64,000 nt of DNA from positions 14,816 to 78,815 of the forward strand of contig JAXFJE010000009.1 in assembly GCA_034168985.1 (NCBI GenBank). Direction: 5' to 3'. The position numbers were made by a program, and so were the translations under genes. Shown here piece after piece: positions 19,845-56,341 of this stretch (within the stretch, counting starts at the first letter, position 1; each line of letters starts with the position of its first letter). The notes beneath the pieces are model-generated. The model worked only from the letters and a program-made list of their open reading frames with translations, was not told the DNA's origin and made no database searches. The stretch comes from Erysipelotrichaceae bacterium (GTDB taxonomy: Bacteria; Bacillota_I; Bacilli_A; Erysipelotrichales; Erysipelotrichaceae).

Positions 19845-20066
19845 GATATCACCTCCTAAAACAATGATATCATTTCGCAAAAATGAATTCAATTCAAAAA
19901 TGCGAAACAAAATATTGGCGTTAAATACAAGTTAATTCAATTAGCTTCGTAAAGTAACAAAAAAATTATGTTCAAAATATGCGATAAATAAAGTATACTT
20001 TATAGCACATATTCTCATTTAATTAACAAAACGTTAATTTATTCGTTTATTCAGAGAAATGCAAAG

Positions 20067-21988: not shown

Positions 21989-22846
21989 ATGGTGAATTAT
22001 AGAATAGATGAGGATGTTAAATTAATTAGAGAGATACTTAATTTATCTCAAAAACAATTTGCTGAAAAAATAGATGTTGATGTGATTACGGTAGCAAGAT
22101 GGGAAACTGGCAAAATGGATACAAATGAAAATAATATCGAAAAAATCTATACTTTTGCATTAAATAATAATATCTTTATAAATGAGATTAAAGCACAACT
22201 TTATTATGAAGATTTAGCAAATGAGAATAAATTAGTATTATACCATGGTGCCAAGAACATTATAGAGGGTAATATTGATATTGAGCATTCAAAAAACAAT
22301 AATGATTTTGGTAAAGGATTTTACTGTGGTGAAAGTTTTGAGCAGTCATCATTATTTGTAAATGGATTTGATACATCTAGCGTTTATATATTAAGTTTTA
22401 ATCCACAAAACCTTTCTAGCATTGAATATAAAGTCAATCAAGAATGGATGTTGACAATTGCATATTTTAGAGGAAGGCTAAGTGGCTATGAAGATCATCC
22501 GATTATCAAAAAGTTAATTAACAAATTAAAAGACATAGATTATTTAGTAGCACCAATTACTGATAACAGGATGTTTAGAATTATAGATAGTTTTATTGAA
22601 GGTGAAATTACTGATGAACAATGTATACATTGTTTGGCAGCTACTAATTTAGGATTTCAATATGTTTTTAAAACAGAGAGAGCGTTGAGTCAGGTAAAAA
22701 TTGTTGAAAGATGCTATTTATGTAGTAAAGAAAAAGAAAAGTATCAAAGCAAAAGATTAGAGGATAGTAAAGTTGGAGATACTAAAATTAAAATGGCTCG
22801 AAGACAGTATAGGGGGCGAGGTCAATATATTGACGATATATTATGA
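21989..22846 (+). CDS. XRE-type HTH fused to a DUF3990-like domain
   Basis: N-terminus LSQKQFAEKIDVDVITVARWETGK is an XRE HTH. The C-terminal part has LVLYHGAKNI, DFGKGFYCGESFEQS and VAPITDNRMF, which match my recollection of DUF3990. No search was run. Confidence 0.5.
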   Translation: MVNYRIDEDVKLIREILNLSQKQFAEKIDVDVITVARWETGKMDTNENNIEKIYTFALNNNIFINEIKAQLYYEDLANENKLVLYHGAKNIIEGNIDIEHSKNNNDFGKGFYCGESFEQSSLFVNGFDTSSVYILSFNPQNLSSIEYKVNQEWMLTIAYFRGRLSGYEDHPIIKKLINKLKDIDYLVAPITDNRMFRIIDSFIEGEITDEQCIHCLAATNLGFQYVFKTERALSQVKIVERCYLCSKEKEKYQSKRLEDSKVGDTKIKMARRQYRGRGQYIDDIL

Positions 22847-24248: not shown

Positions 24249-25517
24249 ATGATTAGTCGAGATTTTTATTTAGAAGAAATTAAATCTAGTATGTGGGATG
24301 GACAAGTAAAAGTGATAACAGGTCTTAGAAGATGTGGAAAATCAGTTCTTTTATTTGAATTATTTAAAGATTATCTTATATCAACAGGAGTATCAGACGA
24401 AAATATTATTACTATTTCATTGGATCAAAGAAAATATTATAAATATCGTAATCCTATTCTTTTGTGCGATTATGTTGAATCAATCATAACAGATGATGCC
24501 AGTAAGTATTATGTGTTTATTGATGAAATTCAAATGAGCATGAAAACTGTTGACAAAGAAAATGGCGATATTGAAGTAACTGTTTATGATATGCTAAATG
24601 AATTGAAATCATATAAAAATCTAGATGTGTATGTAACAGGTTCAAATTCTAGAATGTTAGCAACTGATATCTTAACTGAATTTAGAGGGCGATCAACTCA
24701 AATTCATGTTTATCCTCTATCTTTTGAAGAATATTACTCATATAGAGGTGGAGATGAAAGAAAATGTTTAGAAGAATATATGCTTTATGGAGGAATGCCA
24801 AGGTTAACGCAATTAAAAGATGATAACGCTAAGAAAAAATATTTGTTATCACTTTATGAAGAAGTTTATATTAAAGATATTAAGGAAAGAAATGGTATAG
24901 AAAGAGAAGATATATTAGAAGAAATCCTTGATTACTTATCTTCACAAATCTCATCTTTAACAAATCCTACAAAAGTTGCAAATGCAATTTCTAATGAGAA
25001 GAAAGAAAAAATAGATAATATTCTTGTTAGTCATTATATCAAGCATTCTGTTAATGCTTTTTTGATTTTAATAGCAAAAAGATATGATATAAAAGGAAAA
25101 TCATATTTTAAATATCCGAATAAATATTATTTTACAGATGTTGGACTTAGAAATGCTAGACTTAATTTTAGACAATTTGATCCTGGCCATTTAATGGAAA
25201 ATATCATATATATTGAGTTGATCAGAAGAGGTTACGCAGTTGATGTAGGAGTTGTATATGATCGGGCAAATGGGACTACAGCTGTAAAAGAAGTAGACTT
25301 TGTGGTAAATGATGGTGATAAAAGAATATATATTCAATCAGCATTAAGAATGGATGAAGAAAAAATAAATTCTGAATTGAATTCATTGAAACTAACGAAT
25401 GACTTCTTTAAAAAAATTATCATTAGAAATGATATATCTCATAATTATTATGATAATCATGGAATTTATCATTGCAGTTTAATTGACTTCTTGCTAAACA
25501 GAGTTGAGATCTTTTAA
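24249..25517 (+). CDS. AAA ATPase with DUF4143-type C-terminal domain (second paralog)
   Basis: Walker A GLRRCGKSVL, Walker B VFIDEIQM, YVTGSNSRML. Collinear with the 18657-19844 product. Confidence 0.7.
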   Translation: MISRDFYLEEIKSSMWDGQVKVITGLRRCGKSVLLFELFKDYLISTGVSDENIITISLDQRKYYKYRNPILLCDYVESIITDDASKYYVFIDEIQMSMKTVDKENGDIEVTVYDMLNELKSYKNLDVYVTGSNSRMLATDILTEFRGRSTQIHVYPLSFEEYYSYRGGDERKCLEEYMLYGGMPRLTQLKDDNAKKKYLLSLYEEVYIKDIKERNGIEREDILEEILDYLSSQISSLTNPTKVANAISNEKKEKIDNILVSHYIKHSVNAFLILIAKRYDIKGKSYFKYPNKYYFTDVGLRNARLNFRQFDPGHLMENIIYIELIRRGYAVDVGVVYDRANGTTAVKEVDFVVNDGDKRIYIQSALRMDEEKINSELNSLKLTNDFFKKIIIRNDISHNYYDNHGIYHCSLIDFLLNRVEIF

Positions 25518-36549: not shown

Positions 36550-37239
36550 ATGAATAGATTTAATCATCATAAGGTAATGTATAGCATTATCATCTTTTTT
36601 AGCTGTCAGGTCTTATCGCTTATGATCATTTTCTATCCTGATCGCTATCCATCGTTACAATGGGTCTTCATAGGGGCTTTGATCGTTTTGGCTTGTTCGA
36701 TCATCAGTGATTTTTGTGCCTTTGCGATCATTAGAAAATTGGAGCGCCAATTAGATGAAGAAGTACAGATCAAAAAGATGATCAAACTAAATACCTATAA
36801 TGATGATTTTTTTGATTTTGCAGCAATGCAACAACGTAATATTCGCTTTTTTTATCATGATCTCAGTAATCATATCATTACCTTGGATATCTTGAAAAAG
36901 CAAGGTAAGACCGCGGAGATCGCGGCATATAATCAAAAACTGAAAGAACGTTATGAAAATGTTTTGCCAATGATCAAGACCGGTAATTACTTTTTAGATA
37001 TCATTGGTCAATATTGTTATGAAGAACATAAGTGCTTGTTACGCTTTGAAGGTGCGGTGAAAAATGAACAATATAAGCAGCTTCTGTGGTTTATCCAAAA
37101 GATCATGCCGTATTGTGAAAATAATGAAGTACAAGTGATCATTAAAGATGATGGTGAGGTTACATTTATAATGCCAATCGTCAATGAGACGATCAAACAA
37201 GATGCCTTGATGTGTGGCTATGAGGTTCATCAGGCATGA
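36550..37239 (+). CDS. Truncated AgrC/HPK10-like sensor: 2 TM + H-box, no ATP-binding G-boxes
   Basis: 229 aa. FFYHDLSNHI is an H-box (His103, nt 36856-36858). KTGNYFLDIIGQY follows. The protein ends before any DxGxG/GxGxG motif. Confidence 0.55.
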   Translation: MNRFNHHKVMYSIIIFFSCQVLSLMIIFYPDRYPSLQWVFIGALIVLACSIISDFCAFAIIRKLERQLDEEVQIKKMIKLNTYNDDFFDFAAMQQRNIRFFYHDLSNHIITLDILKKQGKTAEIAAYNQKLKERYENVLPMIKTGNYFLDIIGQYCYEEHKCLLRFEGAVKNEQYKQLLWFIQKIMPYCENNEVQVIIKDDGEVTFIMPIVNETIKQDALMCGYEVHQA

Positions 37240-38480
37240 ACGTATTTTATATCAACAGTATCTTATTAGCTTTTATGATAGCTTATTATTTCAATGAGAT
37301 GATGCCTAGCACGCGAAAATGGCGGGATTATTGCATGCTAGTGGGCTTTTATATTGTTCATATGATCATCGTTACGATGATATTAGATCGACCAGGTGGC
37401 CAGCATGATCAGCCTTTTGTAAGATTGATTCTTGCGTCAGCGTTAATGATCGCATTCTTAAAGTGGTTAAAGAAGGTTAGCTGGTTAGAAGCGATCTTTT
37501 GGCATTGTGGTTATTTGTTGATGGCTATAGCTTGCGAGATCAGTGCCATGGTCATTACGATGTTTTTGGTGAATTTTGATATGGCTGTTTTTTTTGCACA
37601 GATTAATCAGAATTTCTATACTTTTTTGATTAGTGATATGCTATCATTCTTGGCAATATATTTTGCCGTATATTTTCGTAATCGCTGGCGTCGTAAATAT
37701 GAAAAACTAACTTTATTGATCATTTTTCTTTCTTATCAATTCATGATGTTATATCTATCATCTTTTAAGATGAACGTAGGTTGGCAAGCTAGTGGCATCG
37801 TTTTTATTAGTTTTATCTTTTTGCTGGTAATTGTGGATAGTGTGGCTTTTTATTTGATCAAAGAGATTTATTATCATATGAAAGATGATAAATATTCGCA
37901 GATGGAAGCAATGCTTAGCCAGCAAATGCAAGCTCAATTTGATCGCTTGTTTGAAAAACAACAAGTGTTGGAAGAAATATATGATGAAATACTGGGAAAT
38001 TCTACGGATATCCTTAAATTAGAAGCTTATCGTAACGAACTTAAAGAAATCCATAATCATTTTTATTGTGAACACGCCCCGGTAAATGCAATGTTAGATT
38101 ATTATGATGCTTTATGTGATGAACATGGTATTGCCTTTGAGGTCAATTTTAAAGGTGCTTTGCCTAAAGCTATCGATGTTTTTGATCTTAATACGTTGTT
38201 GATCAATTGTTTACAAAACGCTATGGATGAAGTTGTGGGGAGCGATAAGGGCTGGATCAAGCTTGAGGTTGCCTGCAAAGATATGATGTTATTTTTACAA
38301 TGCACAAACAGTTTGAACCATGATCAAAAACCTAAGAAGGTTAAAAAGATTGCGGGAAATGGCAAGTATATCGTGAAAAATATCGTAGCGAAATATGGAG
38401 GATATTATGCATTTGATATCTTAGCGGATCAAGCAAAGGTCACGATCAATCTTACGTTAAAAGGAGCAAATAGCCAATGA
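37236..38480 (+). CDS. AgrC/HPK10-like membrane GHKL protein lacking the phospho-acceptor His
   Basis: 414 aa with about 6 TM helices. N-box LINCLQNAMDE and G-box AGNGKYIVKNIVAKYGG. The position aligned to the paralog's RH reads QA (Ala233, nt 37932-37934). Confidence 0.6.
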   Translation: MNVFYINSILLAFMIAYYFNEMMPSTRKWRDYCMLVGFYIVHMIIVTMILDRPGGQHDQPFVRLILASALMIAFLKWLKKVSWLEAIFWHCGYLLMAIACEISAMVITMFLVNFDMAVFFAQINQNFYTFLISDMLSFLAIYFAVYFRNRWRRKYEKLTLLIIFLSYQFMMLYLSSFKMNVGWQASGIVFISFIFLLVIVDSVAFYLIKEIYYHMKDDKYSQMEAMLSQQMQAQFDRLFEKQQVLEEIYDEILGNSTDILKLEAYRNELKEIHNHFYCEHAPVNAMLDYYDALCDEHGIAFEVNFKGALPKAIDVFDLNTLLINCLQNAMDEVVGSDKGWIKLEVACKDMMLFLQCTNSLNHDQKPKKVKKIAGNGKYIVKNIVAKYGGYYAFDILADQAKVTINLTLKGANSQ

Positions 38481-39721
38481 GAGTATATATTTTAAATCAA
38501 TTTATCCTTATGGCATTATGGGCCTATTATTTTAATGAAGCTTTGCCTATTAGAAAGAGCTGGCCAAAGGATCTTGTTTACTTATACATTGGGTTTTTGA
38601 TCCATTCCATGACTTCGATTTGGTTATTTGGTCATCCTGGTGGGCCAAGAGATCTTCCATATCTGCGTATGCTTGTTAGTTTAAGTACTGAGATATTATT
38701 GTTGCTTATCATCAAAAGGTCGCCAATGAAAAAAGTATTTATTAGCTGTTGGTGGCAGCTAGTGTTTGCTTCCTTATCTGAGCTTTTGGCGATGTGTATC
38801 GTACTGGTGCTTAATGGATTTGATACTACAAATTTTGCGACAACCATCAATGTTGAGCTATCCACTAGTTTGTTCAATGATCTTTTCTTTATTATCCAGG
38901 TATATATTTATTTAAAATTCATTCGTAAAAAAGCTCCTAATCGGGAAAAAGATAGCTTTGTCATCTTTTTGGTTTTATTAACATATCAGTTTATGCAGAT
39001 ATATATGATCTTATATCGGATCGTAGATATTCCAATTCCCCACTTTAACCTATTGATGATCAATATGATCATCGTAGTAGCCGTTGTAGATGTTGTGACG
39101 ATGGTGGTGGTGATCAAGATATATCGCAGCATGAAAAAAGAAAAATATTTAATGATGGAACAAAACGTTGAACAACAAATGCGTCATCAATTTGAACAAT
39201 TATTAGATAAGCAACAAACGATGGAAGAAATTTATCAAGAAATCGTTAAAAGTGAGGATTTGCTCGTTCATGATCTGGAATATTATAGTCAAGAATTACA
39301 TGATATTCGTAATAAATTATATTGTGATAATCCAGCTATCAATGCCATGATCAATTACTTTGCAGATTTATTCGCTAACGAATGGATCGCCTTTAAGGTT
39401 GATATCAATGGGAGTTTTCAAGATATCGAAGCTTTTTTTGATATTAATGCTTTATTGACCAACTGTTTGCAAAATGCTTATGATGAATGTCGAGGCAATG
39501 ATAAGATGTGGGTAGAACTAGCAATGGTTCTTAAAGAACGGGTCTTGATCGTTCAATGTCGAAATAGTTTAAATGATCATAAGCTAGCAAACAATAAAAA
39601 AATCTCAGGTCAAGGCAGCAAGATCATCAAAGAGATTACGGATAAATACCGTGGCTATGCTGATTTTATGATCGATGGTGATATCGCGTGTTGGCTGATC
39701 AATATTACCTTGCCTATATAA
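38477..39721 (+). CDS. AgrC/HPK10-like sensor histidine kinase
   Basis: 414 aa and collinear with the previous gene. Candidate H-box QQMRHQFEQLL (His237, nt 39185-39187). N-box NCLQNAYDE and G-box SGQGSKIIKEITDKYRG. Confidence 0.65.
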   Translation: MRVYILNQFILMALWAYYFNEALPIRKSWPKDLVYLYIGFLIHSMTSIWLFGHPGGPRDLPYLRMLVSLSTEILLLLIIKRSPMKKVFISCWWQLVFASLSELLAMCIVLVLNGFDTTNFATTINVELSTSLFNDLFFIIQVYIYLKFIRKKAPNREKDSFVIFLVLLTYQFMQIYMILYRIVDIPIPHFNLLMINMIIVVAVVDVVTMVVVIKIYRSMKKEKYLMMEQNVEQQMRHQFEQLLDKQQTMEEIYQEIVKSEDLLVHDLEYYSQELHDIRNKLYCDNPAINAMINYFADLFANEWIAFKVDINGSFQDIEAFFDINALLTNCLQNAYDECRGNDKMWVELAMVLKERVLIVQCRNSLNDHKLANNKKISGQGSKIIKEITDKYRGYADFMIDGDIACWLINITLPI

Positions 39722-39747
39722 AAAATGACCTTTGAAGGTCATTTTTA
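39722..39747. terminator. Bidirectional terminator between kinase and response regulator
   Basis: AAAAATGACCTT-tga-AGGTCATTTTT. Confidence 0.8.
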
Positions 39748-39750
39748 GCA

Positions 39751-40524
39751 TTATTTTTTCAAGAAATGGTTGGTTAGATAGGCATTGACATCATTGCGAT
39801 ATTTCCGTGAAACTGGAATTAACTTTTTATTTATCAATAGGATGTCGTTATTATGGATCTCTTTGATGTAATCGATGTTGACGATATAAGCGCGATGAGT
39901 TTGGATGAAGTTTTCTGGCAAGATAGGTAAATAATCATCAAATGAAGCATAAGTATCTAAAAATAGCTCATTAGGATCATTGATGGTCACTGCCTCTAAA
40001 TTAGGCAGATATTTGGTGATATCTTTACAATAAAACTTGATCTTTCGCAGCGATTTTTCCATATAGACGATATCTGAAATAGCGACGATGGTGTGTTTAC
40101 GATTGAATGATATGGATAACGTATGACTGTTATTGTTAAGATCGTTCAATTTTTTCAGCGCTTTGTTGATCGCATTTTTTAGATGAATTTCCATGTCATC
40201 TTTTAAGACATAGTAAATATGGTCATATAAATATGCTTCTTGGAAAAATTGCACGTATGAGGTCAAAAAGATAATTTGGGTTTCTGGTGAAATTGTAGTA
40301 CATTGGCGAGCAAAATATAGACCATTACGATGTTCATTTTCATATTTGATATCTAAGATCAAAATGTTGAAATTGTTTTTGATAACTTGATCTTCTAGTT
40401 TTGATAAGCTATCAAAGGTTGTAATTTGATAATCTATTGTCTTAGCTGCCATTAACGAATTTACAAACGCGGTTGCGGCTTGTAATTGATAAGTGTTATC
40501 ATCACAAATGGCAATGTTGATCAT
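39751..40524 (-). CDS. LytTR-family response regulator
   Basis: Receiver domain (MINIAICDD, ILILDI). C-terminal LytTR domain (ISDIVYMEKSLRKIKFY ... QTHRAYIVNIDYI). Confidence 0.8.
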   Translation of the reverse strand: MINIAICDDNTYQLQAATAFVNSLMAAKTIDYQITTFDSLSKLEDQVIKNNFNILILDIKYENEHRNGLYFARQCTTISPETQIIFLTSYVQFFQEAYLYDHIYYVLKDDMEIHLKNAINKALKKLNDLNNNSHTLSISFNRKHTIVAISDIVYMEKSLRKIKFYCKDITKYLPNLEAVTINDPNELFLDTYASFDDYLPILPENFIQTHRAYIVNIDYIKEIHNNDILLINKKLIPVSRKYRNDVNAYLTNHFLKK

Positions 40525-46701: not shown

Positions 46702-49700
46702 TTAATCCTCACCCATTTTTCTTATTCTTGTTATTTTTTTCTTTTTGTTAATGACAATTTTTTGATTGGTTTTTTGGTTTTTAACGATCTTATCATTATC
46801 ATTGACGATATCGATGGTTTCACAAGCGTTACCGATGATATAACCTAAAGGAGAATGAATTTCACATACTTTTAATTTACTACCATAGGTTAGATCTTTG
46901 ATAGTGAATGCGCCATGCTTGATAGTAAAGTTTTCAGCTTTATCAAGATAGTGTAATTGATAATCAGCTTCAGGCAAGCCATAGACGATGATTTCTCCTT
47001 TATCATTAGTGTTGGCTCGTAAAACAACTTTACCAGTTTTGTCCATTACTTCATAAGGTTCGCTGATCATTGGAACATCGATATAAGTATATGTTTGACC
47101 TGCAAATACATAATAGCGCTTATGATTGCTTAAGTTGGTTATTTCCATGTTCAAGATCTTTTCGTTAAAATCTTGATTAGCTATGTAGGTTTCTATAGGG
47201 CCTTCAAAGATGATCTTGCCGTCGATCGTGTCGCTAGCGTTTTGTAAACTGATCTTATCGTTAGCTATGTCATTATTAACAACTTTATAGCTGATGCCTT
47301 TGATGGTGATGATATCGTTTGGTTTTAGGTTTTGAATATTAGGGATATCTTCATATCGTAGGCCTTGATAATCAGTGGTTATAGAAGTAATGACGTATTT
47401 TTCATCAACAAGAGCTTGGATCATCGGCGCTTTGGCAGCTGTTTTATGAAGGTGTAAAATCTTAGGTTGTTGGTTAAAACTTTGATATTTTAAGCTGATC
47501 TTTTGTTCGTCCCGATATATCAAGGTAAAATCTACATGGTTAAATTTAAAGATATCATCTATTTTTAGATCGTTAGGAATATCTTGGAAGCTAGGAGCTT
47601 GGATACAACTTAAAGTTGGAAAGGTGAATTGATAATTTATTTTTGGCTTTTGGACCATAGTAAGGATATCCTGCATGATAAAAGGCTCGGCTGGCAAAGA
47701 AGTGGTTAACTGGCGATAGATACCGCCTGATACAAAGGTTCCAATTGCTTTAGCGGGTTTTATTTGAGGCATAGTGATGATATCGTTTTTTACTTCGATG
47801 ACCATATGGTTATTATCATTGATATTGATCAGTTTATAACCCATGATGGTATTAGCGCTAGTATCATCGCTGGTGGTTGGTTGCCAAATAGCTGGATCTT
47901 GGGCGTAAATGATATCGATGATCTGATAGGTTTGGATATTGCCATCTTGTTTATCAAAAGCTTTAAAGCGAGCTTTTGGCGCAATTTTAGGGCAATTTTT
48001 CAAGATATCTTGATAGGTCAATGGAACATTATGGTTGATGTTATTTTTGTCTACATGATATTCCATTTGATCATCTAGACATTTGACTAAAATATGATCA
48101 TTTTCGATAGCTAAGATTTCGTAAGTGAATTGGACGGAATGATCATCAGGCCATACGCTAAATTGTTGATTTATCTTTAGGTCAGCAGGGATATCTTGGA
48201 ATGTTATCTTATAAGGAAAAGTAGATAAATGATCTTTGGATACATCGTGACCTTCATCGCTAACATCCATGACCGTAAAAATTGCGCCATTTAAAAGCTT
48301 GGTTTGATCATCTTGATCGACCTTGACCACTTCTAGATCAAGCTTACGTTTGGTATTTAGGACATTTTCATATGTAACGTTGATTTTTTCGGCGTATTTG
48401 CTATCAAAGCTGAAGCAGATGTCCTTAGCATCTAGCTGATTTGCATCACGAAAATCATATCCTAATGGTAGTTGAGTTTCACATGCGAGATACTTACGCC
48501 CCCATTTTAGATCTTGGATATTTACTTGACCATCAATTTGAGGGTGGTCATATACCGTGAATTCTTTTAGGATCAAACTGTTAGGTTGGTTATAAAAATA
48601 TGTGCCCGGTGATAGATCGTCGACATCAAACATGCCCCAATGATCGCTGTAGCCTTTTTTGATGACGTTAGTGCCGGCAGGGTCGCTGTAGATGGTCACA
48701 GGATAAAAAGGTTGCGAATGCTGGTGATTGCTTGGGTCAGTAATACGCAGTTGATTTTTTCCGGTCTTACCTTTGAATAAAGGTAAAGTGGTTAGCTTTT
48801 TGATCGAAGCTAGTTGTTGATTACTGGTGGTGAAGTTAATGATTTGATAGATGCTATGCTCTTTAGGATCTGTTTTTAGTTGCTTATTAGTTATTAGATA
48901 GTATTGTTTGTTACCATCTTGATCTTTGCAGCTTACCTTAAAATCTTTGGTACCATCGCTATTGATGATTATCTTCTCGATAGTATATTTGATGCCATTG
49001 ACCTTGAAGCTGTCATGAAGATCGCTATGGATCGGAGGGATATCGTTTTTAGAAATAGGTGATGGAATTGGAAGATAGTAGCGATTGATCTTGGTGGTAT
49101 CTAGAGCGTTAGGACAGGTGATGATCAAGGCTTCGTCCACATCGTCATTTTGTAGGATATCCGCAACGGTATAGGTGCGTTTTTTATTGGTGAAAGTATC
49201 GTTGATCTTCGGTTTGCTTCCTAATTGTTTGATGATCTGTTCATAAGTTATGCCATTTGCACCATGGCCATAGTGAATGTTGATATCAAATGTTTTCATG
49301 CTGTCAACCTTGATGATATGATTATCGATCAAAACACTTGGATCATCACAAGTTAAATAATAATGCTCGCTATTTGGTAAAAAAGCAGATAGATCATAAG
49401 TTTTTTGGGTGTTTATGAAATATTTATCGTAGGTTACATAATCATCGATAGGATTACTAGGGTAGTTTATTTCCAATGTTTCTTTGGAGCTTAGGTTTTG
49501 AATGGTCATGCTATGTTGATTAAGCTTGTTTATAACATATGGATCATCTTCAAAGATAAAACGCGTATTTTCTTGTGGTAGCTTGAAAGCAAATAGTTTG
49601 ATGATATCTTGGTATCTGATGCTTGTTGGTTTGCTTACTTTGATCAGCTCGCTGTCGGTAGTTGTTGGTTTTGATGGCTTGTTTGTTAAGTGATAGCGAT

Positions 49701-52700
49701 AATAGTGATAAGTATTTCCTTTGCTATCTTGGATGATGGTAGCTTTTTCTTGGTTGATATCATCTTTTTTGATGATGTAAGTTTCATCATCAACCTGTAT
49801 TTTGGAGTGGGTCTTAAATAAGTCGAGAATTTCTTGGTAGCTAAAAGGAGCATTGTCTTCTAAAGCAAAGCCTACGATAATATCGTTGTCGTTGCTTTTG
49901 CTTAATATCGTGTATTTTTTATTGTTGATGGTAATATCATCGCCTTTGACTAAAGGTCGTTGGTAGTCAAGGGTTAGCTGATCGTTGATGCACCATGGCT
50001 TTTGTTGGGTCTTTTCTAGTTGGGATACTTGATCATATGATATGACATCATATTTGCTGGTAGCTTGCGGGTCTAAAAAGAAAATCTGCCCATTTTCGTT
50101 TTTGATGACGATGTTTTGTAAATCGGGATAATTGCTGATAACGGTAAAGCTTTGCTCATCGATCGTAAAGGTATCATTAGGTTTTAGCTTGTGGATATTT
50201 GGAATCTGATCATATGTTATGTTTAAAGCGTACTGTAGATCTTGACCCTGTTTAAGCTGGAAAGTTATTTCGGGTAAGACAATATGATCGTTAAATTTAG
50301 ATGCTTGCCATTTTACGATATATTCTTTAGGGGTTATTGCTTGGATCGTAAAGCTTTTGCTTAAGACCTTTTTTTCTTGATAAGTAGTTATCGTTTGGTC
50401 TTTATAGAGCGTGATCTCGATAATTTGCTCATCGATGGATGTTGCAACTTTGAGATGATCGGCTTCTTGTGAGGCAAGGGGTTCAATGATTTGATAGCTT
50501 TGTTCATCGAGGTTGATCGTTTCGCCCTTTGCGTATTGTGCTAATGGCTTGCCGCTTGCTAAGGCGGCTTGAGCTAGATCGTTGAACTGGGCTAGTTCAT
50601 AGGGCTTGTCGATGATCTTGGTATAGCGATGTTCACGTGTCGTATGTAGCGGGCAAGCGAAGATATCATCGGGTTGTTGACAATAGATATTAGGATCTTG
50701 GGTTAGATTGTTGGTTAATTGCCAATAATTGATGATGCTGTTGTCGCTTGTTGGTTCTAATTTTTGATCGTTGAAGATGTAATTGCCATCTACGGTGATT
50801 TGATATTGGTTGCCACTTTCATCACTAACTAGATATTTAGGCGCAATGATATCCACAATGCTAAAGCTTTCTTTAGATGTGATCGTTTGCGGGAAATCTT
50901 CTAATTTGATAGGTTCCAATACCTTGATGATAAAGTTATCGTTTACAGCTGTTTGTAAGCTAATTTCATCGATCTGGTTTGCACTATCACGATGTTTAGC
51001 TAAGATGGTATAAGTTTGATCGTTGATCGTAATCGCGGTATTTAAAGGAATGCTTTCAAGATCTTGATCTTTCAAGTTATCTTTGATCCAAGCTTTTACC
51101 ATTGCTAAGTTAAGATCAAGTGAATCATTGGTGACGATGACCTTTTGCAAATAGCTACCTTCTACCATCAATTGGTGGGGATTACGCTTTACAATGACAT
51201 ATTTATCATCATTGATTTCAAAATTTTTACTTGCTTCGTCTTTGATATCATTAGGTAATTGTTCCCAGCTTAATTGTTGGTAAGGGTTAGCAAGCGTATA
51301 GGTGGTAGCAGGATATACTTCTAGATACTTAAATTTCCCCTTATCATAAACAGCTTGTTTGACAGTATAGCTTTTTTGGGCAAATTCAAGGTGGCTATTT
51401 GGTGATAATTGAGGATAAGGGATATTTGTTAACTGTAATGTTTGGGTTGTATCGGTATGCTTGAAAGTAACGGTGTTAGGAGTAACTTTGATGATTTCGT
51501 ATTCTTTGATCCCATTGTTATCGATGGTGAACTTATCGTGAGGTTTAGGGTCGGTTGGTAATTGGTCGAAGGTTATAGGAGCAACAGTGTTGTAATCGTC
51601 ATATCTTTGGGGCAATAACCAAATTGCATCATGTTCGATCTTTTTGATCGTATAGCGATAGCCCTCTAGAAAAAAGCTTTTATCAACAGCTGGTTCAGGA
51701 ATAGCTGCTAATAATTGGTTGTATGTCAGCTTAGGTTTGGTTTCTAAATGGTCTAGCGATAAAGGGCCCAATAAGGTGGGGCTAGGATCAAGCTCTAGAT
51801 CAGCAATTTCGTAAACTTCAAAAGTTGCATCGTTGAGTTTTAAATATGGATCATCACTAGCTGTTTTAACGATGGATAGATCGATATCGCGCAGCTGATT
51901 AACAAATTGTTGGCTTGCAGTGCTATTTTGGTTTTTGGTACTAACTAGAAATGGTCTAGCATCGATTTTATAAGGGTTAGATACTTTCCATTCCATGATC
52001 CACCAATTCTTATTTGGTGGTAATAAGTTATCGATATGAGCTTTGCCATCATTACCAACCTCAAAGACGCGAATGTTTGTGTTATCTGGTTCCATGATAG
52101 GGTAGAAACTCTTTTTACCATCTACATAGTTAAAACCACCGTATAGATCGGGTTTGATACCGACATTGAAATTATAGATGTCTTCCCAGTTACGATCTTT
52201 GTTGCCATCAAAACGATATTGATGGGTAGGATCTTCTTGCCAACCAATGACAAATTGCGTGCCGGCACTGAAGTTTTGGCTGTGATAATATTCATCTAAC
52301 TTATCAATTTCAATGTTGGCGGTTTTTAATTTAAAAGCGAGACTATAGGAAGGGGTTGGATTTTCAAAAGCGATGCCCATGATCTTTTGACTATCTTCGC
52401 TAGTGTATAAAAGGACATTGTTTAACCAGGATTGGTATTGAGCGTCTTTGCGCTTAAAGGTTAAGGTCTTGCCTTTAGGGCTATCATAGCCTTCATAGTA
52501 AAGGTCATCGATGTCGATCTTTAACTGATTGCCTTCTTGCTTGATGTTGATTCCTTTATGACTTTCGTTGGGGAAAGGCTCAAACCAATCGATAACAGGA
52601 CTTCCAGGATGAAATAAGTTGGTTGAGCCATCATCTGTTAAGATCAAGGTTTCGTTCCAATCTAGTTCGTAGCTAAGCGTATCATGCCATTGGCTAGCAA

Positions 52701-53592
52701 AACTGGGAGTCGTATCATAATTGTGCACAAGATTCATGATGTGATCCATCGTTGCGCTAACATCGACCATGCCACTAACGCTGGCGCATACTTGATCTTT
52801 GTTGGTGCACCATTGCAAAGAAGCCATGATTTCTTGATATTCTTGCGGACAGATGTGTTGCCAGATCAAAAGTTGGGTCGCTAAATAAGTTTCATCGGTG
52901 CTGCCTGTTAAAGGGTGGCCATAACCATAATGAATGATACGTCCCACTTTATTTAAGGTTTCAGGGTCAAGGTCGCTAGGCTTGATGGTGTATTGTGGAC
53001 CGTTGCCATTGCCATCCAAGATAACAAGGACATAAGGTTCGATACAATAACCGATCTTACCATCTAATAAAAATTTTGAAACATATTCATATCCTTGTTT
53101 AGGGTTGTTATAACGAGCGATCCTTTTTTCTCTTTTTAAAGGTATGGTATCAGCAAAGGTTGTGGCTGGAAGCAAATTGATGGTTCCAAAATCAAAGATG
53201 GTATATTTAAGTTGGCGGTATTGGTAGTTGCCAACCACATCATCAATAAAAAACTTGTGATCGATCTTTAAGCTCTCCTTGGGAGGGCTAGTTTGTATGG
53301 GCGAAGAGGTTGGCGGCAAAGGTGAAGATGTGTTATCTGGAGTAGGGGTGGGTTCATTTGTAGGAGCGATGCTAGGATCGTTAGTTGGTAAGGCTGTTGG
53401 GGTGTTTGTGGGGATGGTAGTAGCAGTAGGTAAAGGTGTTGAAGTGGGTTCAATAGGAATGGTTGATGGTTCGCTGGTATTGGTGGGCTCAGGGGTTTCT
53501 GTAGATATAGGGGTTGTGGGTAGTGGCTGATTTGCGAAAACTAGTTGGATGTTGCATAAGATGGTCAAAAATAGGATGAAGATATTTTTCAT
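46702..53592 (-). CDS. Giant secreted surface protein (2,296 aa): signal peptide, Pro/Thr-rich stalk, thioester (TQXA-type) domain, SpaA/CnaB-like folds, about 19 diverged repeats; no LPXTG-type sorting signal
   Basis: MKNIFILFLTILCNIQLVFA|NQ is the signal peptide. The P/T tract spans aa 22-105. GYCIEP (Cys183, nt 53044-53046) and LATQLLIW (Gln240, nt 52873-52875) fit thioester-domain Cys and TQxA(I/V)W motifs. GAIFTV, LPEADYQL and EIHSPLGY are SpaA-like marks. The C-terminus ..KNQKTNQKIVINKKKKITRIRKMGED has no hydrophobic segment. Confidence 0.8.
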   Translation of the reverse strand: MKNIFILFLTILCNIQLVFANQPLPTTPISTETPEPTNTSEPSTIPIEPTSTPLPTATTIPTNTPTALPTNDPSIAPTNEPTPTPDNTSSPLPPTSSPIQTSPPKESLKIDHKFFIDDVVGNYQYRQLKYTIFDFGTINLLPATTFADTIPLKREKRIARYNNPKQGYEYVSKFLLDGKIGYCIEPYVLVILDGNGNGPQYTIKPSDLDPETLNKVGRIIHYGYGHPLTGSTDETYLATQLLIWQHICPQEYQEIMASLQWCTNKDQVCASVSGMVDVSATMDHIMNLVHNYDTTPSFASQWHDTLSYELDWNETLILTDDGSTNLFHPGSPVIDWFEPFPNESHKGINIKQEGNQLKIDIDDLYYEGYDSPKGKTLTFKRKDAQYQSWLNNVLLYTSEDSQKIMGIAFENPTPSYSLAFKLKTANIEIDKLDEYYHSQNFSAGTQFVIGWQEDPTHQYRFDGNKDRNWEDIYNFNVGIKPDLYGGFNYVDGKKSFYPIMEPDNTNIRVFEVGNDGKAHIDNLLPPNKNWWIMEWKVSNPYKIDARPFLVSTKNQNSTASQQFVNQLRDIDLSIVKTASDDPYLKLNDATFEVYEIADLELDPSPTLLGPLSLDHLETKPKLTYNQLLAAIPEPAVDKSFFLEGYRYTIKKIEHDAIWLLPQRYDDYNTVAPITFDQLPTDPKPHDKFTIDNNGIKEYEIIKVTPNTVTFKHTDTTQTLQLTNIPYPQLSPNSHLEFAQKSYTVKQAVYDKGKFKYLEVYPATTYTLANPYQQLSWEQLPNDIKDEASKNFEINDDKYVIVKRNPHQLMVEGSYLQKVIVTNDSLDLNLAMVKAWIKDNLKDQDLESIPLNTAITINDQTYTILAKHRDSANQIDEISLQTAVNDNFIIKVLEPIKLEDFPQTITSKESFSIVDIIAPKYLVSDESGNQYQITVDGNYIFNDQKLEPTSDNSIINYWQLTNNLTQDPNIYCQQPDDIFACPLHTTREHRYTKIIDKPYELAQFNDLAQAALASGKPLAQYAKGETINLDEQSYQIIEPLASQEADHLKVATSIDEQIIEITLYKDQTITTYQEKKVLSKSFTIQAITPKEYIVKWQASKFNDHIVLPEITFQLKQGQDLQYALNITYDQIPNIHKLKPNDTFTIDEQSFTVISNYPDLQNIVIKNENGQIFFLDPQATSKYDVISYDQVSQLEKTQQKPWCINDQLTLDYQRPLVKGDDITINNKKYTILSKSNDNDIIVGFALEDNAPFSYQEILDLFKTHSKIQVDDETYIIKKDDINQEKATIIQDSKGNTYHYYRYHLTNKPSKPTTTDSELIKVSKPTSIRYQDIIKLFAFKLPQENTRFIFEDDPYVINKLNQHSMTIQNLSSKETLEINYPSNPIDDYVTYDKYFINTQKTYDLSAFLPNSEHYYLTCDDPSVLIDNHIIKVDSMKTFDINIHYGHGANGITYEQIIKQLGSKPKINDTFTNKKRTYTVADILQNDDVDEALIITCPNALDTTKINRYYLPIPSPISKNDIPPIHSDLHDSFKVNGIKYTIEKIIINSDGTKDFKVSCKDQDGNKQYYLITNKQLKTDPKEHSIYQIINFTTSNQQLASIKKLTTLPLFKGKTGKNQLRITDPSNHQHSQPFYPVTIYSDPAGTNVIKKGYSDHWGMFDVDDLSPGTYFYNQPNSLILKEFTVYDHPQIDGQVNIQDLKWGRKYLACETQLPLGYDFRDANQLDAKDICFSFDSKYAEKINVTYENVLNTKRKLDLEVVKVDQDDQTKLLNGAIFTVMDVSDEGHDVSKDHLSTFPYKITFQDIPADLKINQQFSVWPDDHSVQFTYEILAIENDHILVKCLDDQMEYHVDKNNINHNVPLTYQDILKNCPKIAPKARFKAFDKQDGNIQTYQIIDIIYAQDPAIWQPTTSDDTSANTIMGYKLININDNNHMVIEVKNDIITMPQIKPAKAIGTFVSGGIYRQLTTSLPAEPFIMQDILTMVQKPKINYQFTFPTLSCIQAPSFQDIPNDLKIDDIFKFNHVDFTLIYRDEQKISLKYQSFNQQPKILHLHKTAAKAPMIQALVDEKYVITSITTDYQGLRYEDIPNIQNLKPNDIITIKGISYKVVNNDIANDKISLQNASDTIDGKIIFEGPIETYIANQDFNEKILNMEITNLSNHKRYYVFAGQTYTYIDVPMISEPYEVMDKTGKVVLRANTNDKGEIIVYGLPEADYQLHYLDKAENFTIKHGAFTIKDLTYGSKLKVCEIHSPLGYIIGNACETIDIVNDNDKIVKNQKTNQKIVINKKKKITRIRKMGED

Positions 53593-53594
53593 GG

Positions 53595-54308
53595 TTATTT
53601 CCTCTCTGTTTTTTCTACTGCTTGTAAGACATAGCGGGCGTTATGTTTTTGCATGTTGCAGGTTACTAGGGTGATCATTTGTTGCTGGTGGTAGTAAAAA
53701 CCATCAACACGGTTGATAGTATAGGCTAAGGTGTTGTCAAACATATTTTTAGCTTCAGCGTATGAAGCGAAATAATTATTGTGCCAACCTAGATAGGTAT
53801 CTTGATCATCTAGGTCATATTCGCTAAAACTAATGATCTGATACTGATGCGTTCCTTGCTTATCGATGAAGGTAAATTCGGGGTGTTTGGTGAAATAATC
53901 TAGATCGTTATATTTTTTTAGGAAGGTAAAATTCCAATTTTTGGTTTTAGATGAATGACCGTTGATGATGTAATTGTTCGATGAGCTTAAGGGACTGATT
54001 TGTTTTTCCATGAAAACGGCGCCCATCGTATCATAGTGACCATAAATATCGTGTAACATATAGTGGTCGCCATTAGCTGTATAGATGATCGGTATCTGGG
54101 TCGTTACATCATCGCTCGTAAACTCAAGCAAGGCGAATATCTCGGGATTGATCTTTTGCCAAGTTGCTAGATCGCTTGTAGGGGGCAACTTATTGATAAA
54201 CGGGCCATGCTGGTGATCATGGTTATGAGGTAAAAAGAAATAAACGAAACTAAGTATACACATGATCAACAAAAAGAATTTAACAGGTTTACGTAATTTT
54301 CTATTCAT
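53595..54308 (-). CDS. srtB: Class B sortase
   Basis: N-terminal TM anchor, His motif YIINGHS, Cys motif ITLVTCN, conserved Arg (ARYVL), and a class-B-type N-terminal region (INPEIFALLEF..IPIIY..DHYMLHD). 8-nt overlap with the upstream gene and a 2-nt gap to the giant gene. Confidence 0.75.
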   Translation of the reverse strand: MNRKLRKPVKFFLLIMCILSFVYFFLPHNHDHQHGPFINKLPPTSDLATWQKINPEIFALLEFTSDDVTTQIPIIYTANGDHYMLHDIYGHYDTMGAVFMEKQISPLSSSNNYIINGHSSKTKNWNFTFLKKYNDLDYFTKHPEFTFIDKQGTHQYQIISFSEYDLDDQDTYLGWHNNYFASYAEAKNMFDNTLAYTINRVDGFYYHQQQMITLVTCNMQKHNARYVLQAVEKTERK

Positions 54309-55251
54309 AACTTACTAATACTCCCTCATCGTAGGTAATGGTTTCGCTGTAGCTTTCTTCGCTAATTTCTTCGAAGATGATCTCTTGATTGATATGGTTA
54401 TCCATGATCTGTTGATCGTGGTTAGAAGGTCTAGGGGGATCGATGCTAGCCACAGGCTTTAATGTTTGAGGCTTTTTTATAACTGGAAGCGAAGCTTGAG
54501 CGATGTTTCCCGCCTTGTCACTAATGGTATAGATAAAAGCAGCTTGATCATCGGCAAAATCAAGTTCATTGCTACAAGCAACCTGGGTTTTAGGTAGTTT
54601 ATCGACATTATCATCAACGCTTTGAATATAGTAATGACAATCCTGAAGGCCATCTTCATACACGAGTTTTTCATGGGTAAGCGTGATCGTGGGTGCTTGA
54701 TCATCGATGATATTTACCATCAAGGTAAGCTGTTTTTGCTTGAAATTATTCTTAGCTAAATAATTTAATTTATAGGTACCAGGGCTTCGATCATTTAAGA
54801 CAGGTAGGATGACCTTGGCATTTTTTAGTTCTTGTATAAGTGCTTGCGCATCAAAATGCTGACCATAGCTAAGCGTGATATTGTTAGCTTTTAAGCTAAA
54901 TTGAATATGCGTAAGGTGGTGAAAAAGTTTGTAAGCTCCAATGAATAAAAGTTGAAGCATCAACAGCGTGCTAAGCCACAGTATCAACTTTTTCTTACGC
55001 TGGTGGATGGTTTGGATATGTTCGATAGCGTTGATGCCAAAAATATCATAAGCTTCACTAAAACTAAGAGAAAGCTGCTGTTGTTCATTATTTAAAAAGA
55101 TGATGTTATCGTTAATGCTAAGGATCCTGATTTTTTCATGGATATCGACATGGAATTCTTTTAATAGTTGTTTAAATTTATCGCTGCCATAAATATGGGT
55201 AATTTCGATCATTTCGCCTGCTAAACAGTTGGCTAAAGCTTTAGATTTCAT
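54301..55251 (-). CDS. Bitopic protein: FeoA/SH3-like cytoplasmic domain, one TM helix, two Ig-like (DUF5011-type) extracellular domains
   Basis: Start set at MKSKALANCLAGE (RBS AAGGAGG, 4-nt spacer). LAGEMIEITHIYGSDKFKQLLKEFHVDIHEKIRIL...SEAYDIFG follows the FeoA pattern. The TM helix is LILWLSTLLMLQLLFIGAY. GTYKLNYLAKN...IIDDQAPTITL is typical of Ig-like DUF5011 repeats. Confidence 0.55.
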   Translation of the reverse strand: MKSKALANCLAGEMIEITHIYGSDKFKQLLKEFHVDIHEKIRILSINDNIIFLNNEQQQLSLSFSEAYDIFGINAIEHIQTIHQRKKKLILWLSTLLMLQLLFIGAYKLFHHLTHIQFSLKANNITLSYGQHFDAQALIQELKNAKVILPVLNDRSPGTYKLNYLAKNNFKQKQLTLMVNIIDDQAPTITLTHEKLVYEDGLQDCHYYIQSVDDNVDKLPKTQVACSNELDFADDQAAFIYTISDKAGNIAQASLPVIKKPQTLKPVASIDPPRPSNHDQQIMDNHINQEIIFEEISEESYSETITYDEGVLVSYE

Positions 55252-55351
55252 GCTTACCTCCTTGGTTGTGCTTATAAATAAACCGTAAAAAGTAATTTCC
55301 CTGAAAAAAATAAAATAATAAGGTAAAATAAATACAAAGGAAGATGATATC

Positions 55352-56341
55352 ATGCTTAAGATCAGCGAAGTTACAAAGATATATGATAGAAAGAATAAAG
55401 CAATCGATGATTTGTCCTGTACGATCGAAGATGGCACTTTTTGTGTGATCATTGGTCCTAGTGGGTGCGGTAAGACGACCTTGCTTAGGGTGATCGCTGG
55501 TTTGGAAAAATGTGATCAAGGTCAGATTTGGATCGATGATACATGTATCAATGAGCTAAGGCCCTATGAACGAAATGTTGCGATGGTTTTTCAAGATGCT
55601 GCGCTTTTTGCTCATATGACTTGCTATCACAACATTGCATATGGCAATCATAGTTGGCAAGAAAGCAAGCAATTGCGAAAAAAGATCGAAGATATTGCTA
55701 AGATGTTAGGAATCGCTGATTTGTTAGATCGCTATCCTAATTCATTGTCAGGGGGCCAAAAACAAAGAGTAGCGATTGCACGTGCTTTGTGCAAACCAAG
55801 TAAGTTGATCTTGATGGATGAACCATTTAGTAATTTAGATGCACAACTAAAATATGAACTGGCAGATGAGGTTAAAACGTTGCAGCAAAAATTACAAAAG
55901 ACGATCATTTATGTAACGCACGAACAAAAAGAAGCTTTTGCATTGGCGGATAAATTGATCGTCATGGATCAAGGGAAGATCATGCAGATTGGCAAACCAT
56001 ACGAAGTTTACCATCACCCTTATAATGCGTTTGTAGCTCGATTTTTTGGTGATATCAATATTTTGGATGCCAAGATCACAAATGAAAGCTTATTTGTTGA
56101 TGAAGTTGAGATTTGCCTTGTGCCAGGAATGGAAGATCAAAGCTGCACTATCGGCATACGTCCTGAAGATATCCAAATAACTGGAAGGATAAAGGTAGAA
56201 AGATTGAATGTCAGCGATCGTGGAAGCTATTATTTAACCAAGGTTAAAATGGGCAAACGCATCATCATTGTTAAGACTAGTACGGATGGTAAATTTGATG
56301 AAATTACGTTTATCAAAGAAAAAATAATTTTTTTGAAATAA
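55352..56341 (+). CDS. Stand-alone MalK/UgpC-type ABC ATPase
   Basis: GPSGCGKTT, LSGGQKQRVAIARA and ILMDEPFSNLD, plus a C-terminal OB/TOBE-like tail. No permease or binding protein lies nearby. Confidence 0.8.
   Translation: MLKISEVTKIYDRKNKAIDDLSCTIEDGTFCVIIGPSGCGKTTLLRVIAGLEKCDQGQIWIDDTCINELRPYERNVAMVFQDAALFAHMTCYHNIAYGNHSWQESKQLRKKIEDIAKMLGIADLLDRYPNSLSGGQKQRVAIARALCKPSKLILMDEPFSNLDAQLKYELADEVKTLQQKLQKTIIYVTHEQKEAFALADKLIVMDQGKIMQIGKPYEVYHHPYNAFVARFFGDINILDAKITNESLFVDEVEICLVPGMEDQSCTIGIRPEDIQITGRIKVERLNVSDRGSYYLTKVKMGKRIIIVKTSTDGKFDEITFIKEKIIFLK

Follow-up and report, generated by a model that had tools for sequence, protein, structure and literature searches.

Coupled genes for a thioester adhesin, a class-B-type sortase and an Ig-like membrane protein form a candidate surface-display cassette in Erysipelotrichaceae

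On contig JAXFJE010000009.1 of an Erysipelotrichaceae bacterium (assembly GCA_034168985.1), a stretch of 64,000 nucleotides (positions 14,816 to 78,815), henceforth named the window, contains three adjacent minus-strand genes, which were assigned from the list of open reading frames (ORFs) and by reading the sequence. In the direction of transcription these are gene 1, which encodes a membrane protein with immunoglobulin (Ig)-like domains that we name the partner, the gene of a divergent sortase, and a giant gene encoding a thioester adhesin. We propose that the three genes may constitute a surface-display cassette dedicated to this one adhesin, in which the sortase would recognize a short signal at the very C-terminus of the giant protein. 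All coordinates listed in Table 1 refer to the window.

Table 1. Genes and sequence features of the three-gene locus
Feature	Position	Strand	Remarks
Gene 1	54301..55251	-	316-aa bitopic membrane protein, type-A Ig-like partner; ORF list, start from homologue alignment, AlphaFold model
Shine-Dalgarno sequence of gene 1	55257..55263	-	AAGGAGG, 5 nt upstream of the ATG at 55251
FeoA-like (SH3-like) domain, predicted cytoplasmic, residues 1-75	55027..55251	-	AlphaFold model and Foldseek
Transmembrane helix of gene 1 product, LILWLSTLLMLQLLFIGAY	54931..54987	-	RKKK just before it
Two Ig-like beta-sandwich domains, predicted extracellular, residues 124-259	54475..54882	-	Rib / SraP / Bact_surface_Ig-like type
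Acidic/aromatic C-terminal tail of gene 1 product, QEIIFEEISEESYSETITYDEGVLVSYE	54304..54387	-	nearly invariant within the clade; modelled as disordered
Sortase gene	53595..54308	-	divergent class-B-type sortase, 237 aa
His118 of sortase	53955-53957	-	predicted catalytic
Cys217 of sortase	53658-53660	-	predicted catalytic, in TLVTC
Arg225 of sortase	53634-53636	-	predicted catalytic
Giant gene	46702..53592	-	secreted thioester adhesin, 2,296 aa
Sec signal peptide, MKNIFILFLTILCNIQLVFA	53533..53592	-	sequence reading; equivalent N-termini in homologues
Thioester domain core, residues 181-247	52852..53052	-	Pfam TED (PF08341)
Cys183 of giant protein	53044-53046	-	in YCIEP
Gln240 of giant protein	52873-52875	-	in ATQLLIW
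SpaA/CnaB-type prealbumin-like domain, residues 2207-2273	46774..46974	-	Pfam, 51.4 bits; last strand ...IVKNQ
Basic C-terminal tail of giant protein, KTNQKIVINKKKKITRIRKMGED	46705..46773	-	without hydrophobic segment
Candidate sorting pentapeptide I-R-K-M-G	46711..46725	-	only E-D after it; family consensus [I/V]-[R/P]-[K/R]-[M/T]-G

The original prediction, which had been made from the sequence alone, described these genes as an operon packed for translational coupling, and the coordinates agree with this description in every detail. The TAG stop codon of gene 1 (54303-54301) and the ATG of the sortase gene (54308-54306) share the octamer ATGAATAG; two nucleotides, CC, separate the TAA of the sortase gene from the ATG of the giant gene; and the sequence GAGAGGAAA upstream of the giant gene is situated within the 3' end of the sortase gene. 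A strong ribosome-binding site of its own and divergence from an ABC ATPase gene (55352-56341, plus strand) had likewise been stated, and both are present. We took 55251 as the start of gene 1, because all aligned homologues share the N-terminus MKSK and because a longer ORF of 383 amino acids, which extends to 55452, runs into the ABC ATPase gene. This mechanically derived ORF (54301-55452) comprises 67 extra codons and overlaps the first 100 nt of the ABC ATPase gene; an automatic gene caller could mis-start there. As scans for promoter and terminator consensus sequences gave nothing over the shuffled background, the boundaries of the operon were defined by the gene arrangement only.

The giant protein had been proposed to be a thioester adhesin, and this assignment is supported. 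Both its thioester domain (TED; 31.3 bits versus a Pfam cutoff of 22) and its SpaA domain score above their Pfam thresholds, and the sole solved sequence relative of the former is the class II TED of SaTIE (6fx6, E = 2.3e-7). The Cys motif is kept in 25 of 25 homologues and the Gln motif in 24 of 25; the name given to the protein by NCBI is "Cys-Gln thioester bond-forming surface protein". The signal peptide is followed by a Pro/Thr-rich segment. Note that the public NCBI version (P0024) comprises 2,178 amino acids and starts 118 codons downstream, thus lacking both of these N-terminal elements; we prefer the start at 53592, because homologues keep an N-terminal signal peptide. In the stalk (46975-52850), a loose regular expression detected at least eight loosely repeated, SH3-like modules of about 30-60 residues having the form [IL]-T-[YF]-x-[QD]-[IL]-P...D-x-F...Y-x-[IV]. 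Summed over the modules, there is a 29-bit match to the Pfam family Phage_attach (gpFII head-tail joining, SH3-like), none of the stretches being significant by itself, and a BLAST self-comparison of the giant protein found no internal repeats. The composition of the stalk is unlike that of the usual tandem CnaB/ester-domain stalks.

Canonical class B sortase substrates carry the motifs NPQTN or NPKTG (SrtB of S. aureus, B. anthracis and Listeria) or (S/P)PxTG (SrtB of C. difficile). None of these, with a hydrophobic segment and a charged tail downstream, is found in the C-terminal tail of the giant protein, KKKKITRIRKMGED. The original prediction had named homologues with normal LPXTG anchors as evidence against itself; an LPXTG motif with a transmembrane segment is absent from all 24 homologues that are complete and full-length (30-57% identity). 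Instead, 21 of the 24 end with x-[R/P/K/W]-x-[M/T]-G plus 0-22 residues (median 2), and the remaining three possess the near-variants WRMD (two cases) and PKMS. Examples of such ends are RIRKMGED, RIRKMGQD, LRKMGVN, KKMG (at the very end), KYMGDE, WKMGVEE, RWRMGAIEE, IPKMGE(E), ITRKTGESDE and ISRRTGERYE; the longest uncharged run in these tails has at most 8 residues. When the last 239 residues of the giant protein were used for an exhaustive HMMER search, smaller TED/SpaA proteins (250-900 amino acids) were found in addition, which end with YEEVPSMGVD, YDEVPKMGLD, IIPKMGI, IVPEMGIDH and similar sequences, whereas matches sharing the SpaA domain only have an ordinary LPxTG motif, a transmembrane segment and a basic tail. 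Thus, the earlier statement that the adhesin has no canonical sorting signal is correct insofar as both an LPXTG motif and a C-terminal hydrophobic segment are missing; the protein is not signal-less, however, as a conserved degenerate IRKMG stands at its end.

Position-specific statistics were computed for about 49 distinct tails; the Gly at P1' was required by the pattern used for collecting them. Position P4 is I or V, P3 is R (31 tails) or P (15), P2 is K or R, and P1 is M (44) or T, Met being present in about 90% of the tails. The Gly is followed by a median of 2 residues, often D or E, as in LPxTG-E/D. M and T replace each other at one position (RKMG, RKTG, RRTG), and P takes the place of R at the position of the LPXTG proline (IPKMGE, VPKMGLD). 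The core of the tail is an LPXTG-like pentapeptide (compare LPKTGE) with Met in place of Thr and often Arg in place of Pro, which is located at the extreme C-terminus and has no anchor. In peptide form, the candidate substrate of the sortase is KKITRIRKMGED.

Related loci, which are designated by L and a number, originate from neighbourhood look-ups, a scan of one genome per species and a metagenome scan, and were analysed with BLAST. Among the 373 ORFs of at least 100 amino acids in the fetched loci, the motif is found in 12, all of which encode giant proteins; in addition, there is one chance match. Neither the window nor the fetched loci contain another candidate substrate for the sortase, and in the window this is the only sortase, none of the ORFs having a canonical sorting signal. 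We also considered N-x-K-T-N (NQKTN in the window) as a class B signal resembling NPQTN. This candidate was discounted for two reasons: The Pfam match of the SpaA domain reaches residue 2273, which makes V-K-N-Q the last strand and leaves only K-T-N beyond it, and it is the terminal KMG motif that varies towards LPXTG-like forms.

Two irregular giant genes were noticed among the relatives. At L019:1593-7952 (metagenome-assembled genome (MAG) Solobacterium sp. RGIG5614), adhesin and sortase form one in-frame ORF of 2,119 amino acids with the junction ...VKVRKMGE|MPKKTTAAVMIAMGLALLSAVSILRRK..., where the KMG motif is followed by the transmembrane helix of the sortase and basic residues, mimicking a classical sorting signal. 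This fusion probably goes back to an indel in the assembly or to loss of the stop codon, as it would invert the topology of the sortase. At L011:10717-17568 (MAG of a closely related Erysipelotrichaceae bacterium), two ORFs of 330 and 1,902 amino acids take the place of the giant gene, due either to a frameshift that made it a pseudogene or to a mistake in the assembly.

The sortase domain scores 35.9 bits and thus lies above the gathering threshold of Pfam PF04203 (26.6). In NCBIfam, the SrtB model TIGR03064 is the sole match, with 53.7 bits versus a cutoff of 153.75, which is not reached; for 16 of 16 sortase relatives the same model is the best one and none of them reaches its cutoff. In a profile search, all 15 PDB matches of the family are of the SrtB type (5b23, 1rz2, 5jcv, 5gyj, 3psq and 1ng5 among them), the best being C. 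perfringens SrtB (5b23, 3.7e-17). Consequently, the label "class B sortase" of the original prediction can be kept in a loose sense: The Pfam threshold is passed and the solved relatives are all class B, but the score is far from that demanded of SrtB itself. His118, Cys217 and Arg225 are invariant in alignments of 16 and 18 sequences, which include relatives down to 22% identity. The N-terminus, MNRKLRKPVK followed by FFLLIMCILSFVYFFL, is a typical signal-anchor with a membrane-spanning segment at residues 11-26; according to the positive-inside rule, the catalytic domain would be placed outside the cell. In summary, the sortase appears to be a membrane-anchored, class-B-like enzyme of an outlying subfamily, which is probably active, as judged from its conserved residues.

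For the product of gene 1, no match was found in Pfam or NCBIfam, and its domains were assigned by means of AlphaFold 2 (AF2) models. The underlying alignments were shallow; the model of the N-terminal domain is based on 6 sequences. In the full-length model (pLDDT 64), a small N-terminal domain is followed by a long transmembrane helix, two beta-sandwich domains and a disordered C-terminus. A comparison of this model with the PDB gave Ig-like matches only, the small N-terminal domain being masked. The sandwiches match 6s5y, 4m03 and 4l3a according to Foldseek, i.e. Ig-like domains of Rib, SraP and InlK, and distant homologues match PF16403. These findings agree with the extracellular Ig domains postulated before. 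Homologues that possess a transmembrane anchor, Ig-like domains and an acidic tail are named type A in the following.

The postulated FeoA-like domain fared less well. Modelled alone, residues 1-78 gave a pLDDT of 80 and a pTM of 0.70, and the top five Foldseek matches are the FeoA structures 2k4y, 3e19, 7r7b, 2k5l and 2k5f (TM-scores 0.68-0.76, root-mean-square deviations 2.2-2.6 Å); the next matches are FeoA-like domains of DtxR-family regulators. By sequence, FeoA (PF04023) was not detected: For three N-terminal domains there is no Pfam match at E ≤ 10, NCBIfam contributed none, and the number of PDB-sequence profile matches is 0. Hence, the assignment fails the thresholds of the hidden Markov models, whereas AlphaFold and Foldseek recovered the fold; the model supports a FeoA fold, but membership in the FeoA family is not supported. 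No FeoB gene is present in the neighbourhood. Moreover, the domain does not define the system, as it is confined to the clade of the window; the partners of other clades carry a different N-terminal domain. Type-A partners outside this clade (L006:11159-12613, L010:8598-9593, L016, L019-L022) have a helical cytoplasmic N-terminus, which is not FeoA-like, has no Pfam match and contains the motif LQxxEIExGxxxGLSxEQIxxYxxxxxNYxQMxxIRxAL.

The C-terminal tail of the partner is conserved: Over the final 12 residues (ITYDEGVLVSYE) there is essentially no variation, although the proteins as a whole are only about 50% identical. The net charges of the two C-termini are opposite in 9 of 9 loci, ranging from +6 to +10 for the tail of the adhesin and from -5 to -11 for the tail of the partner, versus a background of 0.1 ± 3.7.

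The original prediction had also named a lack of co-conservation of the three genes as evidence against itself; the trio is co-conserved. The search yielded about 20 distinct loci in two gene orders, and each locus with enough flanking sequence contains a tail-bearing giant protein, a sortase of the family and a type-A homologue of gene 1. The order partner-sortase-giant, together with the same flanking genes, is characteristic of the window's clade; there, the trio is intact and syntenic between the ABC ATPase gene on the one side and the HAD, proC and ldh genes on the other, with the three proteins being only about 49-64% identical. The order giant-sortase-partner, with overlaps of 4 nt and 1 nt, is found in Stecheria, Solobacterium and other Erysipelotrichaceae. 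Junctions that overlap or abut are seen again where the sortases are only 33-64% identical: The overlaps are 8 nt and 4 nt long in L001, and 4 nt and 1 nt long in L010, L017, L018 and L022. At greater distance, an RRTG-tailed protein lies beside a 40%-identical sortase with the same neighbours (L035), a protein ending with IPKMGE has as neighbours a sortase of 35% identity and an Ig-like lipoprotein (L023), and the gene of an 888-residue TED protein ending with VPKMGLD is overlapped by that of a 26%-identical sortase (L024). The metagenome scan, for which a wider sortase alignment was used, gave only 11 loci, which are mostly short and all consistent with the trio. The family is narrow, as 6 clusters for gene 1, 17 clusters for the sortase and 74 representative matches for the tail were found in 1.8 billion proteins, and almost all members originate from Erysipelotrichaceae of gut samples.

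Some of these loci are chromosomal; several others reside in regions resembling integrative and conjugative elements (ICEs), which include type IV secretion genes. The clearest case is L027, which encodes a helix-turn-helix protein, ParA, ParB, SSB, the sortase, the Ig-like protein, the giant protein, ArdC, MPTase-PolyVal, TrbL_4 (VirB6-like), a VirB4/TraG-type ATPase and MuF_C, and which adjoins chromosomal bipA and a MatE gene. The surroundings of L004, L006, L008 and L026 are similarly ICE- or plasmid-like; in the plasmids of PLSDB, tblastn gave no match to the sortase or to the adhesin tail. A TED adhesin is required for conjugation of pLS20 (PMC8092201). The cassette can be regarded as an ICE module of gut Erysipelotrichaceae, which probably serves the adhesion of donor and recipient. 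The neighbours of the copy in the window are ordinary chromosomal genes, namely ldh, proC, a Cof-type HAD gene and ABC transporter genes and, farther away, those for threonine synthase, aspartate kinase and phosphofructokinase. We propose that this copy is a chromosomally fixed version, whose partner acquired a FeoA-like cytoplasmic domain. In addition, ICE-borne loci often contain a second, type B partner (L004:6734-7795, L006:13564-14481, L008:8533-9459, L027:8729-9883), which is absent from the window. It consists of an N-terminal transmembrane helix, an Ig-like domain, a Cys-rich EGF-like segment (CxVNAxWxGxxCVCxxGYxGDGWTxCT) and a Ser/Thr-rich region.

The mechanism which we propose for the cassette is as follows. 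The giant protein would be exported by the Sec pathway due to its N-terminal signal peptide, and its class-II-type thioester domain (Cys183-Gln240), located at the far end of the stalk, may adhere covalently to a presumed target surface. Its C-terminus would provide a sorting signal without a transmembrane segment, which has the general form [I/V]-[R/P]-[K/R]-[M/T]-G plus about two residues (IRKMG-ED in the window). The co-translated, membrane-anchored sortase, equipped with His118, Cys217 and Arg225, would read this pentapeptide, cleave after Met or Thr and join the adhesin to an amine, the most likely acceptor being a peptidoglycan precursor. The Ig-like membrane partner would substitute for the absent hydrophobic anchor: Its acidic tail may hold the basic tail of the adhesin and present it at the membrane beside the sortase. 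We propose this tail-to-tail docking because the disordered tail of the partner is nearly invariant and because the two tails are oppositely charged in all nine loci. According to the work on AbpA-SrtB of streptococci, a short tail retains the substrate poorly (PMC4974636); in the cassette, the partner may have a compensating role.

The central part of this mechanism, i.e. that the sortase recognizes the terminal pentapeptide, cleaves it after Met or Thr and attaches the adhesin to the wall, we regard as fairly probable. The following points weigh against it or against its extensions. Cleavage, cleavage site and acceptor are what we infer. The specificity of known enzymes cannot be transferred to this sortase, because its score is far below the equivalog cutoff of SrtB. 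To our knowledge, Met at P1 is accepted by no characterized sortase, and Arg at the canonical Pro position of a sorting signal is unusual. We infer the role of the partner from co-conservation and charge complementarity; however, the partner in L023 is a lipoprotein without an acidic tail, and L024, the most distant adhesin-sortase pair, contains no Ig partner at all. Because of these two loci, the conserved core of the cassette is the pair of adhesin and sortase, which the Ig-like membrane protein frequently joins as third member. With respect to conjugation, no conjugation genes are found near the cassette in the window, where the adhesin may at present serve adhesion to host or mucus or between cells. 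Finally, the TED adhesin of pLS20 works without a sortase, so that signal-less TED adhesins may be retained by other routes.

To each of two alternatives we assign a small probability. In the first one, the chemistry is the same and the acceptor is different: The C-terminus of the adhesin would be ligated to a lysine of the Ig-like partner, giving a membrane-anchored covalent heterodimer, or adhesins would be joined together as by a pilin polymerase. Class B enzymes can indeed be lysine-directed polymerases, and Spy0129 of S. pyogenes (3psq) is among the solved relatives of the sortase; AbpA-SrtB also yields ladders. The partner is co-translated with the sortase and is always tethered to the membrane, either by a transmembrane helix or by a lipobox, with its Ig-like domains outside. 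On the other hand, the invariant residues in the partner alignment are only D183, P187, D214, D245 and N249, i.e. no lysine is invariant; a pilin motif of the YPKN type exists in neither protein; and pairs of the L024 type manage without a partner. We consider ligation to the partner or to other adhesins improbable.

Equally improbable in our opinion is the second alternative, namely that the tail is not a sortase signal. In this case, the adhesin would be retained non-covalently by means of its polybasic tail, which could bind to teichoic acids, to the membrane or to the acidic tail of the partner, and the sortase would serve other substrates or be a relic. The sortase-independent pLS20 adhesin, which has no sorting signal, sets a precedent, and both the unprecedented Met at P1 and the strong opposite charges of the two tails would be explained. 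This assumption is difficult to reconcile with the invariant catalytic triad, with the coupling of sortase and adhesin in two gene orders and with the lack of any other candidate substrate in the window and the loci. In tails of the VPxMG type, moreover, the preceding residues are acidic instead of basic, but the x-P-x-M-G core is preserved and a sortase gene overlaps. We retain recognition of the pentapeptide by the sortase as the preferred explanation.

That the copy in the window is left over from an integrated conjugative element, is decaying and has no present function, as might be suspected from its relatives in ICE-like regions and from the missing conjugation genes, is very improbable, given an intact ORF of 6.9 kb in a genome of 35-40% GC content, three intact genes that are syntenic at about 49-64% identity, and the conservation of catalytic residues and tail motifs. 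A sortase-assembled pilus was rejected, as there is no YPKN pilin motif, no class C sortase and no pilin with LPXTG and a transmembrane segment.

Elsewhere in the window, two regions attracted attention. Between positions 18000 and 28000, the GC content is 0.275-0.31 compared to about 0.35-0.40 elsewhere, and this stretch may be an island; it contains genes for two AAA_14/DUF4143 ATPases (18657-19910, minus strand; 24249-25517, plus strand) and an HTH_3/DUF3990 gene (21989-22846). The region 36550-40524 encodes tandem paralogous multi-pass membrane proteins of 414 amino acids each (37236-38480 and 38477-39721, which share 4 nt), whose C-terminal regions look kinase-like by eye. They are followed by a convergent gene for a response-regulator-like protein of 257 amino acids (39751-40524, minus strand), and the group is maybe an Agr/LytTR-type sensing module.

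All parts combined, the cassette would represent an undescribed three-component pathway of covalent display: A divergent class-B-type sortase would read a signal with Met at P1 and without a transmembrane segment ([I/V]-[R/P]-K-M-G); an Ig-like protein would replace the anchor, either by capturing the basic tail with its acidic one or as the covalent acceptor; the pathway would be dedicated to giant thioester adhesins for mating-pair formation of ICEs; and in the window's clade, the FeoA-like domain would link display to a signal from inside the cell. It is rather unlikely that this joint reading is correct in its entirety, and we offer it tentatively.

If the IRKMG-type tail is a genuine signal, the substrate range of sortases extends to Met at P1 and Arg at P3, sorting that needs no hydrophobic anchor is, after AbpA-SrtB, known from a second and independent case, and current predictors of cell-wall anchors would miss all of these adhesins. 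The work on pLS20 raised the question of how thioester adhesins of conjugative elements that lack a classical signal remain on the donor (PMC8092201); the cassette, if our interpretation is true, is a concrete candidate answer. It would likewise be a candidate module for mating or colonization on ICEs of gut Erysipelotrichaceae. In addition, sortase substrates would have a new accessory factor in the Ig-like partner, the tail of which is invariant. Experiments are feasible, as at least one carrier, Stecheria intestinalis (locus L018; NZ_VUMN01000003), has been cultured.

The original prediction regarded the trio as an undescribed system. Full-text searches, which covered open-access papers only, revealed no paper describing the trio or the motif, and likewise nothing for a sortase with DUF5011; the novelty of the system is reduced by precedents, namely AbpA-SrtB (PMC4974636) and TED adhesins on conjugative elements (PMC8092201). 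The class B sortase module of the "Hodor" megaplasmid is different, because canonical sorting signals occur there, and srtB of C. sordellii pCS1 is unrelated to conjugation efficiency.

The closest known system is AbpA-SrtB of oral streptococci, where the signal LPKTS plus AVK has no hydrophobic domain, is cut between T and S, and is served by a dedicated, adjacent SrtB gene (PMC4974636). In both systems, the gene of a class-B-type sortase adjoins that of its single substrate, and the pentapeptide is located at the extreme C-terminus with few residues after it, lacking a hydrophobic domain and a long charged tail. The differences concern the motif, which is [I/V]-[R/P]-[K/R]-[M/T]-G with predominant Met at P1 instead of LPKT[S]AVK; the substrate, which is a TED/SpaA adhesin of 0.4-2.3 thousand residues instead of a 20-kDa amylase-binding protein; the usual presence of a membrane-bound Ig-like third partner; the sortase, which no specific NCBIfam model detects; and the occurrence in Erysipelotrichaceae and on ICE-like elements. 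With TIE adhesins, the giant protein shares the signal peptide, a class-II-like TED with Cys and Gln motifs, a CnaB/SpaA stalk and the location on conjugative elements. BaTIE, SaTIE and EfmTIE86 differ from it in carrying LPXTG plus a transmembrane segment and in using housekeeping sortases. TIEpLS20 (p34 of pLS20; PMC8092201) also lacks a canonical sorting signal; in contrast to the cassette, which co-encodes a dedicated sortase and an Ig-like partner and has a conserved short tail of the KMG type, it has no sortase and a different C-terminal region. The giant protein is three times as long as TIEpLS20 and has SH3-like modules in its stalk.

With canonical SrtB enzymes, the sortase has in common the fold family, the His-Cys-Arg triad, the N-terminal membrane anchor and the best PDB profile matches. 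It deviates from them in its TIGR03064 score (53.7 versus 153.75), in the lack of Isd or haem-uptake genes nearby and in substrates without the hydrophobic segment and charged tail. Sortase pili, assembled by class C enzymes or by class B enzymes of the Spy0129 type, resemble the cassette in that a sortase operon contains SpaA/CnaB proteins and in the logic of a thioester tip adhesin as in Cpa; the cassette differs by having no major or minor pilin genes and a partner that is anchored N-terminally and has no sorting signal. Taken individually, a class B sortase, a TED/TIE adhesin, a sorting signal without a transmembrane segment and adhesins on conjugative elements are already known; the features that are new are Met at P1 together with Arg or Pro at P3, the conserved Ig-like membrane partner and the association with ICEs of Erysipelotrichaceae.

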